Positions 8,725-26,881 of a stretch of DNA of 43,220 bases are shown piece by piece. Below the pieces are notes generated by a model that was not told where the DNA came from, did not search any database, and was given only the letters and a program-made list of their open reading frames with translations. Both the position numbers and the translations under genes were made by a program. How positions within the stretch are numbered: position 1 is the first letter of the stretch; every line of letters begins with the position of its first letter. This DNA is from a virus (Duplodnaviria > Heunggongvirae > Uroviricota > Caudoviricetes): the IMG/VR virus record IMGVR_UViG_2526164633_000017. One strand, 5' to 3'.

Positions 8725-10797
8725 TTACCAGCCCGTAATGTAGTTATCGCCCGCGTAAATATTCAGCCCCATACCGTCCTCGGTGACGCGGGAACTGGTC
8801 AGACGTAACCCCTCGCCAAGTTCGACGCGCAGCGAGGCTTCCGCATTGACTTTTTGTTCCTGCGGTTCCTTATCCGTGGCCGTCCATTTCTGATACAGGT
8901 CGGTTACAAAACCGCCCAGATACTCCCCGGCGACACTGCCCAGCGTGGCACCGGCAACCGTACCCAGCGGTCCGGCAAGGCTGCCAACGGCACCGCCGAG
9001 CCATGCACCGGCTGTACTGCCAATTGCGCCTGCTTTTTCATGGGTTGACGCCTGCTCATCCATCAGGACGGGGGCAAGCTGGAGTGCCCCCATTACCGGG
9101 CCACCCAGACGTGACAACGCACGACCGGCACCTTTCCCCATCCAGCCCAGCGCCCCGGCACCTTTTGTCACAACCCGACCGATCGCACTGCCTGCAAGTT
9201 TGTTTCCGATACCGGAAAACCACCCGCCAGCGGCACGCCCGGCATCAGCCAGCTTTCCGACCGTTCCCGTAACCAGTTGCCCGGCAGCACTGCCTGCAAG
9301 CCTGCTCAGAAGACCGGATTTACCGGGTAAAGGTAATGGTGCAGGCCGTGCCGTTACCGGTACGCCGGGTGGGGGTAATGCCAGTACAGGGCGTGGTGCA
9401 GGTAATGCCAGCGGCTGTGGCCCGGACAGCAATAACGGCTGGCGGGGTAACAGCGGGGCCATTCTTCCGCCGCTCCGTACGCGACGACCGCCGCCACTCC
9501 CGTAGCCACCAAATCCACGGGGCCAGTTGATGACAAACACACGCTGAATGCCGATACCCTGCAACAGCGTCTCAGACGTCATGGCATCCGGGACCGGCAG
9601 CCCTGCCTGCCCACGTTTGCGGTTTCGCATCCAGCGCCACATACGACGCCCGGTTTTAAACGGATAACTGGCAACCTGCCATGAGGGTTTTGCCACGGCC
9701 CAGCCTGCTCTCAGGGCTTTATTGGCAAGCCAGACAGACACCAGAACAGCAGCCAGTTTTTTCAGGCTGACAATATTCTGGTCAACCCATGCCAGCGCAT
9801 CTTTACCCGGTTTCAGCCAGCGCCATAACTCCTGCGCCGCGATTTTTACCGTTCTGAACGTGGTCAGAAATTTCTGACCAATGTTTTCTGCCAGTGCGTC
9901 AAGTTCCCCGGATTTATCCGCCATGTCGTGCCAGTTAAGCACCCGGCGCATCTCGTTCTTGATTTCTTCAAAGGGGCCGCTGTTTGCCACCTTTATGCGA
10001 AATTCAAGCAGGTTGGCTTCCATCTGGGCGAACATCCCGTCCCAGGAGTTCATCGCACTGGCCTGTGCACCTTTTGACTGTTCTGACAGCGTTCTGAATA
10101 CCGTCAGAATGGATTTCAGGCCCAGCTTGCCCTTTGTACCCAGATCACGGATTTTTTTAACGTCCGTTCCCGTTGCATCCGCCAGCGCCTGATAAACGTT
10201 GATACCGTAACCGGTCAGCAGGTTGGCATCCGCCGCTGTGATTTGCTGGCGGGCAAACATCTGTTTCAGTTGCAGTGAGGCACCCTGGGCAGTGGGTAAA
10301 TCCCAGCCGTGCATGGCCCCCTGATCCTGCAACATGGTGATGAACTGTTTCGTCTGTTCATCCGTCATGCCGAAGCCTTTCGACGAACGGATCTCATCCA
10401 GAACACCACTCAGCCCCCACGTGGTGTCCTTCGCGTTCTGCTTTGCCCAGGCCATCATGGCCTGCGCTCTGACCTTATCGCCGTGATACAGCGAGTTCAT
10501 GGCGATGATCTGCTGCTCACGCTGGGCGGCTGCACCAATAAACAGTTTATTGGCGGTGTAACCCACGCCAGCGATACCCAGCGCCCCGGCTGACAGCATT
10601 CGGAATGTACGGGTTGACAGTGAACCCATTCTGTCAATGGCACCAGAAACGCGCACAACCTCCATACGCAGGGCACGAAGGGAACTTTGCCCGCTACGGG
10701 ACAGGGCGTTTATCTGGTTCGAATACTGGCGGGAACGCCGGGAAAGATTGCCATTAAGATCAATAATGACAGACGCCTTTAAGCGTTTCCCGGTCAT
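8725..10797 (-). CDS. Tail tape measure protein
   Basis: 690-aa ORF, Gly/Ala/Pro-rich C-terminal half, located between tail chaperone/tube genes and baseplate genes. Confidence 0.85.
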
Positions 10798-23702: not shown

Positions 23703-23949
23703 GATGTTCTGTCTCGTCTGCCAGCCGCGCGGCACGATTTGCGGCACGGATAGCGGAAAATACCTGCATCGTCTGTTCCTGACCGTGTAACAACCATTCA
23801 GCCGTGTTGCGGGCCTGTTGCTCCGTCTGTAATTCACGGCGCAGCGTCTGGTTATCGTGGCGGGTGCTGTCCAGCCTGTGCCACAACACCCCGGACAAAA
23901 CGGCGGCAAACACGGCTGCCAGCAGTAAACTTTTACTGGCGAAGGTCAT
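23563..23949 (-). CDS. Inner-membrane spanin (Rz-like)
   Basis: 128-aa ORF with N-terminal TM segment (SLLLAAVFAAVLSGVLW) and charged coiled-coil periplasmic domain; directly after endolysin. Confidence 0.75.
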   Translation of the reverse strand: MTFASKSLLLAAVFAAVLSGVLWHRLDSTRHDNQTLRRELQTEQQARNTAEWLLHGQEQTMQVFSAIRAANRAARLADETEHHDAKQKITTAITGDNCSTRPVPAVAADRLRELEKRTRAIGGDPARN

Positions 23950-24451
23950 CCGCCCCCCTGATATTCCAGATAGCCATTTCCACTTCGCGACGGTTCATCA
24001 GTCCTTTCCATTTATGGCCTGCGGCAAACACCCAGCGGGCCATCTGGTCACGCGCTCCGGCGTAATCACCGGCATTGAGTTTTTTCAGCAGCGTTGATTT
24101 ACTGAATGCGGTAACACCGGTGTTGAAAATAAACGTTGCCAGCGCCGTTTTCTGATATGGCGTCAGCGGCACCCTGACAAGACGATCGATTGCCGCATAA
24201 ACCGGTTTTAAATCACTGTCGAGGAGAGCCATACACTCCGCATGGCTGTAACGGCGCATTTCGATATCCGGCCCGGTATGCCCCACACAGACCGAAAGCA
24301 CACCGCCAATATCGCGGTAAGGCATATAAGCGATATTTTCCAGGTGGATCAGAGACTGACGGGTCATTTCCTGATAACCACCCACACCGCCACCGGCAAT
24401 CGTTACAGCCAGCAGTGTGGCTTTCAGTTTTTTTGGTATCCCCGCCATCAT
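23933..24451 (-). CDS. lys: Endolysin, lysozyme-like with N-terminal signal-anchor-release (SAR) type segment
   Basis: 172-aa ORF; Gly/Ala-rich weakly hydrophobic N-terminus (LKATLLAVTIAGGGVGGY) followed by E-x8-D catalytic-type motif (ENIAYMPYRD) typical of T4-lysozyme-type muramidases. Confidence 0.8.
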   Translation of the reverse strand: MMAGIPKKLKATLLAVTIAGGGVGGYQEMTRQSLIHLENIAYMPYRDIGGVLSVCVGHTGPDIEMRRYSHAECMALLDSDLKPVYAAIDRLVRVPLTPYQKTALATFIFNTGVTAFSKSTLLKKLNAGDYAGARDQMARWVFAAGHKWKGLMNRREVEMAIWNIRGADDLRQ

Positions 24452-24521: not shown

Positions 24522-24548
24522 AAATAACCGGCAGGATGCCGGTTATTT
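24522..24548 (-). promoter_or_regulatory. Perfect interrupted palindrome AAATAACCGGC-N5-GCCGGTTATTT between C and lys; candidate activator site for late lys promoter and/or transcript end
   Basis: 11-bp arms at 24522-24532 and 24538-24548, overlapping the stop codon of the C-like gene, about 75 bp upstream of lys ATG. Confidence 0.45.
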
Positions 24549-24965
24549 TGGGCTTTCAGGTGAGAACAGATCAGGCTGATGACGTCGTGTATGCAGCTTT
24601 CTCTGGCGGGCAATAATCTGGTAGATCTGCGGCTGGGACAGGCGGTACTGGCGACGCAGTTCTTCCATGTTACGACCATTAAACTGGCAGTAAAGCAAAT
24701 CGTCGCGTAACGCGGTCAGGATCGTATCGCCGCAGGGGATGTAAAACTGCCGTCCACCCAGAAAACAGGACAGGGCAACGGCCTGTTTACGGGCAAGTTC
24801 ACGGGGATTGCTGACGTTCTGGCGTTTCAGTTCGTTTTCCAGAACATCAATCAGATCAACCACCGAACGGGGCCAGCGTGATTCCAGTTCCGGGGCCGGG
24901 ATGTTATCAATATGTCCGATTAACTGGCGAATTGCCGGATCGTGTTCAAATAAATCATGCTGCAT
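24543..24965 (-). CDS. C: Late transcription activator (Mu C-like, Mor/C family)
   Basis: 140-aa ORF; Mor/C family features (C-terminal HTH, QFNGRN motif shared with the Mor-like paralogue at 25944..26333); precedes lysis and morphogenesis genes. Confidence 0.85.
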   Translation of the reverse strand: MQHDLFEHDPAIRQLIGHIDNIPAPELESRWPRSVVDLIDVLENELKRQNVSNPRELARKQAVALSCFLGGRQFYIPCGDTILTALRDDLLYCQFNGRNMEELRRQYRLSQPQIYQIIARQRKLHTRRHQPDLFSPESPK

Positions 24966-25006
24966 ATTTTCCCCCGGTTAACAGACAAAAAGATACACCA
25001 CGGCAC

Positions 25007-25020
25007 TGATGGTTATCAGA
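25007..25020 (-). promoter_or_regulatory. Palindrome CTGATGGTTATCAG upstream of C-like gene; candidate middle-promoter element
   Basis: Dyad symmetric 14-mer in the 112-bp gap upstream of the C-like gene. Confidence 0.3.
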
Positions 25021-25077
25021 ACCACAAGGGCAATCACTTTTATCGCATTAATCAGCGTGGACGGCCCGAAACATTCA

Positions 25078-25308
25078 TCACTGAATTTTCTGTACACAAT
25101 ATTTTTCCTTATAACGTTGACAGTGGTGAAGAATTTCCGGCATATCAACTGACTGCCAGCCTTTCATGTAATAACTGCCGTGGGTGCCATCGTGCCCTGT
25201 GTAATCCATTGGCTTTGGTGGTGGGCCTCCGGCCTCCCGATGTAATACCTCCTGTCGTAAACGTTCACGCCTGCCGAACTGAAAGGACGCATCCCACCCT
25301 TTACCCAT
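25078..25308 (-). CDS. Hypothetical small protein
   Basis: ORF 25078..25362 in track; internal ATG at 25306-25308 avoids most overlap with upstream gene. No recognisable domain. Confidence 0.3.
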   Translation of the reverse strand: MGKGWDASFQFGRRERLRQEVLHREAGGPPPKPMDYTGHDGTHGSYYMKGWQSVDMPEILHHCQRYKEKYCVQKIQ

Positions 25309-25861
25309 GCAGAACCTCCCGACAGGCGCTGGCGAGCAGATCCAGACGGTTAAACCAGCCATTCAGATATTTCCCCTGCGAGGCACTGGATTTGATAATC
25401 CCTGCGTAATAGCGGGAACGACGCAGGAAGCACTGCAACAGCAGCCAGTCAGTATCGGCACGCAGAACGGCTGCGCGTGTGTTTTTACCGACGATGCCAT
25501 CATCATCAACACCTGCTGCCGCCTGGAGGATCTGAATCGCGCGTTTAACACCGTGCTGAACGGCAGCATCAAAAACGAATAAGGAAACGCCATCAGGCCA
25601 TTCGTTACACTTTGCCGCCAGCCAGTAATCACGCCAGTAGATCTGCGCCGCCTGCTCGCGGGTTAAATCCTTAATGCGGGTATCAGGTTTTCCGTCACCG
25701 TTAACATCGGTTTTGCCATCAATAACGCCGTCGCGACGGTCAGAAATACCGTATTTCGTTTCGCCGCCACGGTCGGCAGGATCATTAACATAGCCACCTT
25801 CAACATCAGGGCGTATAACGAAATTCAGCGAATGAAGGAATGCAGGGGAAAACTCAGGCAT
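25301..25861 (-). CDS. Peptidoglycan hydrolase, GH108-like N-terminal domain with C-terminal peptidoglycan-binding-like domain
   Basis: 186-aa ORF with motif EGGYVNDPADRGGETKYGI near N-terminus (characteristic of glycoside hydrolase family 108) and DGIVGKNT-type peptidoglycan-binding region. Confidence 0.7.
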   Translation of the reverse strand: MPEFSPAFLHSLNFVIRPDVEGGYVNDPADRGGETKYGISDRRDGVIDGKTDVNGDGKPDTRIKDLTREQAAQIYWRDYWLAAKCNEWPDGVSLFVFDAAVQHGVKRAIQILQAAAGVDDDGIVGKNTRAAVLRADTDWLLLQCFLRRSRYYAGIIKSSASQGKYLNGWFNRLDLLASACREVLHG

Positions 25862-25913
25862 GTTGCCCTCCTGTCATGAACGTTTTATCGTCACAACAGA
25901 ATATTGAGGGCGT

Positions 25914-25938
25914 AAAAAAAGCCGGATTAACCGGCTTT
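25914..25938 (-). terminator. Rho-independent terminator after mor-like gene (end of early transcript)
   Basis: On transcribed strand: AGCCGG-TTAAT-CCGGCT followed by T7 run, immediately after the mor-like stop. Confidence 0.65.
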
Positions 25939-25943
25939 ACTGT

Positions 25944-26333
25944 TTAAAACAAAGGGGGGGAACACTGACGATACTTTATACGCCGCATTCGTCGGATGGC
26001 TTTATAGACTGTGTTAAATGTCACACCATGACGGATTGCCAGTTCGTGAACATTGCGACCGTTGAAATCATTCCAGATACGCAAATCCCGAATAAGCGAA
26101 TCCAGAACCTGACCGCGTGGAATGTAGACCTGACCGCCGCCCAGATGCTTACAGATAGCCACAACAATCTCCAGTGAATGGGCCGGGTCAACACCTAACC
26201 GGGACAATTCCCCGCGCAGTAAATCGTTCAGCTCCGCCAGCAGTGCCGGAAAGCGTGACGTATCCTCTGCGGGATTGTCAAGATGTGCCAGGATGGTGTC
26301 ATCCTGCAAATCACCAAATAAATCTTCCGTCAT
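25944..26333 (-). CDS. mor: Middle operon regulator (Mu Mor-like, Mor/C family)
   Basis: 129-aa ORF, paralogous to the C-like protein (shared ...GGGQVYIPRG... / ...NDFNGRN... motifs). Confidence 0.85.
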   Translation of the reverse strand: MTEDLFGDLQDDTILAHLDNPAEDTSRFPALLAELNDLLRGELSRLGVDPAHSLEIVVAICKHLGGGQVYIPRGQVLDSLIRDLRIWNDFNGRNVHELAIRHGVTFNTVYKAIRRMRRIKYRQCSPPLF

Positions 26334-26881
26334 TGTGCCATCCTCCGTGTCTTTCTGGCACGGGCATAAGCCGCCGTCATGGCATCATAGCCGCGCAGTT
26401 CACGCCCGGACGGACTGACTGGCAACGGAAGCCCGTGACGGGAAAAGGCTTCACGAATACAGCGGATATGCCACTGCTTGAGAGTTTCGAGAACAATCAA
26501 CAGGGTGTCGCCATGACACCACGCCAGCGTGGAAACACCCTGTCCGCCATTACGTTTCGCCGTCAGGCGCTGAACATATTTATCCAGCGCCACATCACCG
26601 CCATCGGTAATAAAACCGTCTTCTGCCATCTGCTGCCAGACTTTGTATACCTTCTCGCGGGGCGTGACATGCCCCTTAAAGCGGCGACGTGGATGTTTAT
26701 TCAGCTTCTTAAAGCCGCGTTCTTTCATGGCATCGAGCACCTGTTCCAGTTGCGTAACCGTCAGCTCGCGGCAACTGATTTTGCCCGTTTTCTGCATCAG
26801 AAAAGCGCGGTAAGTGTCGTCGTCGAGTTGTAGCTCCCGACGGGCGACATGGATTAATTTAATCAGGGATGTGCGATTCAT
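26330..26881 (-). CDS. gemA: GemA-like early protein (Mu gp16-like)
   Basis: 183-aa ORF immediately upstream of mor, translationally coupled. Confidence 0.7.
   Translation of the reverse strand: MNRTSLIKLIHVARRELQLDDDTYRAFLMQKTGKISCRELTVTQLEQVLDAMKERGFKKLNKHPRRRFKGHVTPREKVYKVWQQMAEDGFITDGGDVALDKYVQRLTAKRNGGQGVSTLAWCHGDTLLIVLETLKQWHIRCIREAFSRHGLPLPVSPSGRELRGYDAMTAAYARARKTRRMAQ

Follow-up and report, generated by a model that had tools for sequence, protein, structure and literature searches.

Predicted superposition of an intrinsic terminator and the Mor-dependent middle promoter in a Mu-type prophage, with a predicted fold over the ribosome binding site of its first middle gene

The middle promoter of phage Mu, Pm, has a -10 hexamer and no -35 hexamer, and its Mor dyad occupies 16 bp at -51 to -36, with the centre at -43.5 (PMC4287176, PMC4390567). 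In the Mu genome record AF083977, positions 9163-9233 are annotated as "middle promoter, activated by Mor, PMID 8602357" and positions 9179-9200 as "terminator, predicted by TransTermHP". A composite of terminator and promoter is therefore already known from the Mu Pm region, which is annotated in GenBank and has been studied for 30 years. The transcript from the early promoter Pe of Mu has been drawn as running "from ner to C" (PMC3820752), and genes 19 and 20 of Mu have been described as belonging to the middle transcript from Pm (PMC9239132). The subject of this report is the corresponding region, the hairpin and T7 run directly after mor and the GH108 muramidase gene that follows them, in a viral DNA stretch of 43,220 nucleotides (IMG/VR record IMGVR_UViG_2526164633_000017, Caudoviricetes). 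The whole stretch is called the window, and its positions are used throughout.

A second described system bears on the muramidase gene. Early transcripts of gene e of phage T4 sequester the ribosome binding site in a helix whose 5' strand contains the late promoters, and lysozyme synthesis is lowered about 100-fold. The same sequestration of the ribosome binding site occurs in early read-through transcripts of soc, 49 and I-TevI (PMC3014915).

The region after mor is probably the early/middle boundary of a Mu-type transposable prophage at which one stretch of DNA does two jobs, with a second layer of control added downstream. The elements that make up this boundary are as follows.

26330-26881, minus strand: gemA, the upstream neighbour of mor
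25944-26333, minus strand: mor, the last early gene, encoding the predicted activator of the middle promoter (Pfam Mor, 1.4e-29); preceded by gemA
25942-25947, minus strand: proximal UP-element subsite of Pm (-57 to -52), TTAAAC here and GTAAAC in Mu; overlaps the mor stop codon
25926-25941, minus strand: Mor box, the 16-bp dyad AGTAAAGCCGGTTAAT (-51 to -36), identical to that of Mu Pm; it comprises the left arm and the loop of the hairpin
25918-25938, minus strand: terminator-shaped hairpin AAAGCCGG-TTAAT-CCGGCUUU; its counterpart in Mu carries a TransTermHP terminator annotation
25914-25925, minus strand: right arm and T-run, the promoter spacer (-35 to -24), position carried over from Mu
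25914-25920, minus strand: T7 run, terminator U-tract and Pm spacer (-30 to -24) in one
25898-25903, minus strand: -10 hexamer TATTCT (TATCCT in Mu), -13 to -8 in Mu numbering
25889-25891, minus strand: putative transcription start of the middle operon; by the Mu spacing, 25890 is the counterpart of the +1 mapped in that phage

Read on the minus (coding) strand, the end of mor and the bases that follow it are TAA-ACAGT-AAAGCCGG-TTAAT-CCGGCTTT-TTTTACGC. The mor stop codon occupies 25946-25944 and the hairpin begins 5 nt downstream. Its stem is formed by 25938-25931 paired with 25925-25918 (8 bp, of which 5 are G-C pairs) around a loop of 5 nt (25930-25926), and the first three Ts of the T7 run (25920-25914) also close the stem. 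The hairpin and T7 run that the original prediction, made from the letters of the window, had placed directly after the mor stop are thus present at 25914-25938, and mor is, as it had proposed, the last early gene, with a terminator-shaped element behind it.

The 57 bp that contain the hairpin also occur in phage Mu. In E. coli FDAARGOS_1059 and JNEC-KY180 the stretch 25250-25960 recurs at 100% identity. The region is 99% identical to the Yersinia phages vB_YpM_5 and vB_YpM_6 and, outside one replaced segment, about 93% identical to Mu, D108 and SfMu; the mor product shares 92-93% of its amino acids with the Mor proteins of Mu and SfMu. With the Mu numbering fixed from the published bases -57 to -52, GTAAAC (PMC4390567, Table 3), which places +1 at record position 9224, the alignments of the 50 bp from the mor stop to the -10 hexamer show three base differences from Mu: T for G at -57, C for T at -21, and the single base at -10 that makes the hexamer TATTCT instead of TATCCT. 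The Mor box, the hairpin, the T7 run and their spacing are identical, gemA and mor lie upstream as they do in Mu, and the cognate Mor is encoded immediately next to the site. TATTCT matches the consensus at four of six positions, the -35 region consists of CCGGCT and the T-run, and there is no TGn and hence no extended -10 element. A sigma-70 consensus scan listed nothing at the Pm site, as expected for an activator-dependent promoter. This comparison identifies the DNA as the Mu Pm promoter. On the same homology, terminator and middle promoter are the same DNA, and the promoter does not lie downstream of the terminator. The next promoter had been sought in the roughly 50 bp before the GH108 gene; the -10 hexamer and the presumed +1 do lie there, whereas the Mor box and the spacer are superimposed on the terminator.

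The conservation of this arrangement was followed in relatives gathered without reference to the hairpin, either through Mor or through a profile of the GH108 protein (80 viral contigs, 67-100% identity). Loci from a DNA pattern scan were excluded from this evidence, because the scan pattern fixes the core by construction, and a protein scan of genome contigs with Mor confirmed no relatives. All 71 unique upstream regions read (A/G)AAGCCGG-T(T/A)AAT-CCGGC followed by 7-9 Ts, and the hairpin is kept in every relative examined, down to 57-65% Mor identity. In 64 of the 65 unique sequences collected with the GH108 protein alone, the hexamer that lies 10 nt beyond the seventh T carries A as its second base and T as its sixth; when the hexamer is anchored on the end of the T-run instead, the counts fall to 58 and 49 of 65. 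The fixed offset of 10 nt implies that the -10 hexamer keeps a constant distance from the Mor box. Where an extra gene comes after mor, as in Klebsiella and Raoultella phages, the hairpin still stands behind the last early gene. The promoter assignment is strongly supported across the clade by these alignments. The hairpin is absent near the distant Mor homologs examined (Vibrio, Shewanella, Pasteurella), so that the composite element is restricted to the enterobacterial clade. A search for the Mu end sequences found nothing.

In Pasteurella phage Pmp9 (L014, 1640-1700) a different hairpin, AACTCTCTTTAA...TTAAAGAGAGTT, with a T6 run lies between a Mor-family gene and an amidase gene; it abuts the amidase start codon and leaves no room for a downstream promoter. 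L034 (1890-1960) and L129 stand for one and the same IMG/VR contig (2531839192_000008). There the hairpin, the T-run and the first bases of the spacer are covered by a partial tandem duplication, about 41 bp long, which places two T7 runs in series upstream of GH108. It may be real or an assembly artefact.

The terminator assignment rests on the canonical shape of the hairpin, a U-tract of at least 7, the TransTermHP call in Mu and the constant place after the last early gene. The hairpin has the features of an intrinsic terminator: a G+C-rich stem, a short loop, a U7 tract that follows directly, and a position just after the last gene of an operon. A purpose-made scan of the whole window for hairpins followed by T-runs gave it -11.7 kcal/mol and ranked it second among 23 minus-strand candidates. 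The 99-nt intergenic RNA folds with z = -4.5, and none of 200 shuffled sequences was as stable. A consensus terminator scan of the window did not list the hairpin after mor, probably because the stem, when extended by A-U pairs, takes in some of the T tail that such a scan requires. Transcription from Pe would be expected to stop mostly at 25914-25918.

Two matches to the hairpin concern its identity as RNA. The DNA pattern scan also found the 23-mer AAGCCGGTNAATCCGGCTTTTTT in roughly 70 unrelated bacterial genomes, among them Bacteroidota, Ignavibacteria and Methylococcales, and as RNA it is a generic terminator sequence that arose many times. The Rfam family sroD gave a match at 25913-25999 on the minus strand, spanning the end of mor and the hairpin. 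At 24.2 bits (E = 0.07) against a gathering score of 50 it is below threshold, and sroD identity was set aside as a chance match, probably driven by the terminator.

Downstream of the -10 hexamer the window departs from Mu, and the second layer of control is predicted there. The features concerned are the following.

25865-25911, minus strand: second stem-loop, -21.4 kcal/mol, z = -4.9, predicted to form only in read-through RNA
25866-25872, minus strand: Shine-Dalgarno sequence AGGAGGG of the GH108 gene, identified from the sequence
25301-25861, minus strand: GH108 muramidase gene, also encoding a PG_binding_3 domain; heads the middle operon (Pfam, 9e-25 and 7e-14)
25078-25308, minus strand: gene 18 homolog, 83% identical to Mu gp18; overlaps the GH108 stop codon by 8 nt

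In comparison with SfMu there is a single replacement, in which the 28 bp between the -10 hexamer and the ATG of gene 18 are exchanged for 586 bp (25895-25310), with junctions at 25896/25895 and at 25309. This cassette is absent from Mu and SfMu. Besides the GH108 gene it brings a new leader and a ribosome binding site. In a relative from S. diarizonae the Mu sequence continues to -1, which puts the junction essentially at the transcription start. Since the cassette lies between the -10 hexamer and the start codon of gene 18, GH108 should be a middle gene co-transcribed with C. The separate, later unit that had been proposed for the GH108 gene and C corresponds to the Mu middle operon, and the question of whether the muralytic gene is a middle gene is settled by homology: its timing is middle and Mor-dependent. 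The terminator and promoter themselves add nothing new, and it is in the first middle gene that the window differs, this being GH108 with its own leader here and gene 18 in Mu.

The RNA around the GH108 ribosome binding site is predicted to fold into a second stem-loop. GCCCUC (25911-25906) pairs with GAGGGC (25870-25865) in the outer part and CUGUUGUGACG (25899-25889) with CG.UCAUGACAG (25882-25871) in the inner part, giving a helix of about 17 bp with an internal loop in which all of the Shine-Dalgarno sequence AGGAGGG is paired. The energy and z-score given above apply to the RNA between the end of the T-run and the GH108 start codon. The 5' strand of this helix is Pm itself, from about -22 to +2. 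RNA started at Pm lacks this strand, and the stem-loop would thus form only in RNA that comes from upstream.

The cost of opening the region from the Shine-Dalgarno sequence to the AUG was computed as a constrained-ensemble energy, with a null model in which the upstream sequence is shuffled. It is 19.1 kcal/mol in the read-through RNA versus 12.1 kcal/mol in the Pm-started RNA. Shuffling only the 23 nt upstream of +1 lowers the cost to 12.0 ± 1.2 kcal/mol (p = 0.003). Fifty-four unique leaders fall into 12 clusters below 72% identity, which are related phages rather than fully independent samples, and all 12 show a significant effect (p = 0.005-0.03), with a median gap of 7.2 kcal/mol between read-through and Pm-started RNA. 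The equivalent segments in 10 other GH108 lineages have z-scores of -2.0 to -5.6, and each folds into a single long hairpin that stops at the Shine-Dalgarno sequence or the AUG. The arms of the stem vary from lineage to lineage while their complementarity is kept (GCCCUC/GAGGGC, GCCUGC/GCAGGC, CGGCAC/GUGCCG, GGGCAC/GUGCCC, CCGGAA/UUCCGG, GCAC/GUGC), and the inner stems have no common sequence between lineages. In Mu, the sequence CCUGUGAUGA, which is exactly -10 to -1, pairs with UCAUCAUGGG at gp18 (p = 0.007). As controls, the junction between Plys and lys showed no significant read-through-specific occlusion (p = 0.38), and among 22 gene starts on the minus strand of the window only that of GH108 was significant and had the highest opening cost. 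These computations show a conserved predicted helix that links promoter bases to a ribosome binding site.

The base at -21 lies in the outer arm. In every E. coli, Salmonella and metagenome sequence examined, the T-to-C difference from Mu (ACGTCCTC in Mu, ACGCCCTC here; window 25906-25912) goes together with the GH108 cassette, and it strengthens the pairing with the GAGGGC of the GH108 Shine-Dalgarno sequence.

The proposed course of events is as follows. In RNA from Pe, positions 25938-25914 would form the intrinsic-terminator hairpin and its U7 tract, and most transcription would stop there. Transcripts that escape would fold the second helix and leave GH108 untranslated, and this untranslated read-through RNA may be exposed to Rho, so that C is delayed. 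As Mor accumulates, it would bind the 16-bp box (-51 to -36) and recruit RNA polymerase; the right arm and the T-run would then serve as the spacer that replaces a -35 element, and the polymerase would use TATTCT and start near 25890. Transcripts begun at Pm would lack the 5' strand of the helix, and from them GH108, gp18, gp20 and C would be made. GH108 would in this way be translated only from Mor-activated transcripts. The termination efficiency, the exact +1 and the effects on translation and polarity are inferred. That Mu-type phages in general insulate the downstream operon by such a second layer, with a read-through RNA that is translationally silent and perhaps open to Rho, delaying C and with it all of the late programme, and that enterobacterial Mu-like phages, Mu among them, share this design, has in our judgement an even chance of being correct.

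Several observations weigh against this scheme. No compensatory change was found in the stem of the hairpin, which never varies among the 71 unique sequences, so that a role as RNA and a role as DNA are inseparable; pairs that never change speak neither for the structure nor against it. Termination at this site in Mu is not reported in the searchable literature. The +1 was taken over from Mu, yet the two sequences part at about -5. The opening cost of 12.1 kcal/mol in the Pm-started RNA is still sizeable. The lineages compared, as said, share ancestry, and their occluding pairs do not lie in homologous columns, so that shuffle tests on each lineage had to take the place of column-wise covariation. 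The mean unpaired probability from the Shine-Dalgarno sequence to the AUG separated the two RNAs weakly in several lineages. In addition, MAFFT and RNAalifold returned no structure for the leaders, which are not alignable by sequence, and a test on the duplex only was suggestive but weak (p = 0.002-0.13; not significant for Mu).

It is conceivable, though we consider it unlikely, that the hairpin is essentially a DNA element only, consisting of the Mor box and the spacer, that little termination takes place in vivo, and that timing is achieved by the burst from Pm together with post-transcriptional insulation. The invariance of the stem is what would be expected of a protein-binding site, and the constancy seen in the 65-71 sequences fits a constraint on the DNA as a promoter. 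The conservation of a fold specific to read-through RNA implies that read-through matters, the Pe transcript has been depicted as reaching C, as cited above, and a ribosome terminating at the mor stop, 5 nt before the stem, could hinder its folding. On the other hand, the hairpin has every feature of an efficient intrinsic terminator with a U-tract never shorter than 7, the corresponding bases are called as a terminator by TransTermHP in Mu, and the hairpin always stands after the last early gene. Neither a named early terminator of Mu nor Mu transcript maps were found in the searchable literature. The "strong terminator" of the original prediction is upheld as to its shape. Its strength is another matter, given that the invariant stem points to a promoter constraint and that a fold formable only in read-through RNA is conserved; the latter suggests that read-through is frequent enough to be selected against.

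The second stem-loop might instead be the normal leader of the middle mRNA, if transcription started further upstream than in Mu, or it might be an element for RNase III or for RNA stability. We give little credence to either. The +1 of phages with GH108 as the first gene is placed by homology only, and a helix of about 17 bp with an internal loop is in the size range of a processing site. However, the distance of the -10 hexamer from the Mor box, fixed in 64 of 65 sequences, means that in all lineages the +1 falls within the 5' strand or beyond it, and in Mu, where the +1 is mapped, the 5' strand CCUGUGAUGA ends exactly at -1.

The occluding fold favoured here would make the GH108 leader a computationally predicted occlusion of the T4 gene e kind. 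In both cases the gene is muralytic, its Shine-Dalgarno sequence or start codon lies in a helix, and the proximal promoter region supplies the 5' strand of the helix, which therefore folds only in RNA initiated upstream. The two are not related in sequence. The promoter here is of the sigma-70 type with Mor and not a T4 late promoter, an intrinsic terminator precedes the helix here, and the effect on translation here is a prediction.

No description of read-through-specific occlusion in Mu-like phages was found in the searchable literature, and the predicted occluding fold appears to be new. If it is real, it would explain sharp early-to-middle timing despite a leaky terminator in Mu-like phages and would extend the gene e principle to temperate transposable phages. 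Mu guards gp18, a protein of unknown function, in a similar manner, which suggests that insulation of the operon as a whole may matter more than the toxicity of a lysozyme.

The remainder of the operon and the neighbouring late gene are arranged as follows.

24978-25097, minus strand: gene 20 homolog, 39 codons, GTG start, one predicted membrane helix; 38 of 39 residues identical to Mu gp20
24543-24965, minus strand: C, the predicted late-gene activator, last gene of the middle operon (Pfam Mor family, 9e-34)
24522-24548, minus strand: hairpin at the end of the middle operon, with the C stop codon inside it; shares bases with the putative C-dependent late promoter Plys
23933-24451, minus strand: T4-type lysozyme, a predicted signal-arrest-release (SAR) endolysin, in the late operon

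By homology the middle operon reads GH108-gp18-gp20-C, with GH108 first and co-transcribed with C. These genes overlap or abut, which leaves no intergenic space for an internal promoter. The segment 24400-25096 is 99.4% identical in DNA to Mu, and gp20, C and the terminator overlapping Plys follow as in Mu, while gene 19 is absent, as in SfMu. The gene 20 homolog begins with GTG (25095-25097, minus strand) where Mu has ATG. As in SfMu, its first 20 nt lie within the end of the gene 18 homolog; 12 nt separate its stop codon from C. The primer sequences published for Mu gp20 (PMC9239132) agree with it.

The "112-bp gap" that the original prediction had seen before C is therefore no gap but this 39-codon gene, and it is very improbable that a clean terminator after mor is followed by a next promoter before C, with GH108 untranscribed or separate from the unit of C: the palindrome that recommended that stretch, CTGATGGTTATCAG (14 bp, a single occurrence, 25006-25019), does exist as described, but it lies within the coding sequence of the gene 20 membrane helix and is coding in Mu too, where the gp20 primers contain it (PMC9239132), the Mu genes 19 and 20 belong to the middle transcript, as noted at the outset, and a consensus promoter scan listed none in the stretch before C.

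The hairpin that closes the operon offers a comparison within the same genome. In the Mu record AF083977 the counterpart terminator (10383-10406) overlaps the late promoter (10403-10469). Plys with the terminator after C thus resembles Pm in being an activator-dependent promoter that overlaps a terminator-shaped hairpin. It differs in its weaker T tail (UUAUUUCC) and in lacking the significant occlusion of the following gene, lys, as the control above indicated.

The order with GH108 first is found in 8 of 5426 complete E. coli genomes, a Mu-type mor/Pm segment being present in 43, and also in the S. diarizonae relative. In E. coli SE11 the order is Pm-GH108-gp18-gp19-gp20-C. Elsewhere in the enterobacterial clade the elements stand, as a rule, in the order hairpin-GH108-gp18. 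This order is seen in Mu-like prophages with a single activator from Klebsiella, Raoultella, Serratia, Brenneria, Pluralibacter, Trabulsiella and Kluyvera, which share with the window the hairpin core, the -10 geometry, GH108 and gp18 downstream, and the predicted occluding leader. They differ from it in having an extra gene between mor and the hairpin and in having neither a C gene nor a T4-type lysozyme downstream. In ten loci from the first six of these genera (L047, L058, L067, L068, L077, L079, L083, L100, L105 and L111) the order is mor, extra gene, hairpin, GH108, gp18 and then gp25- and gp27-like genes, and gp18 always stands beside GH108. The product of gene 18 in the relative L010 matches Pfam Phage_Mu_gp18. 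To judge by gene content, GH108 in the single-activator prophages is probably the endolysin, the promoter a late promoter and the Mor homolog the only late activator. Because the phages with the order hairpin-GH108-gp18 lack C and the T4-type lysozyme, the phage in the window looks like a two-activator Mu-type phage that kept or regained GH108. It has two predicted muralytic enzymes: the middle operon encodes GH108, and the late operon the T4-type SAR endolysin.

The GH108 protein itself falls in its family, both domains scoring above the curated Pfam cut-offs (GH108, 87.4 bits against 21.2; PG_binding_3, 52.3 against 24.6), and the protein is a predicted enzyme. Its relatives in the PDB are 2IKB and 2IS5 (1e-20) and also 7DNP. 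The protein has no N-terminal hydrophobic segment, and it would therefore need a membrane lesion to reach the cell wall. Residues 41-62, approximately, form an Asp/Gly-rich insertion, DRRDGVIDGKTDVNGDGKPDTR, whose D, G, K and P positions do not vary among six diverged homologs and which resembles a calcium-binding loop.

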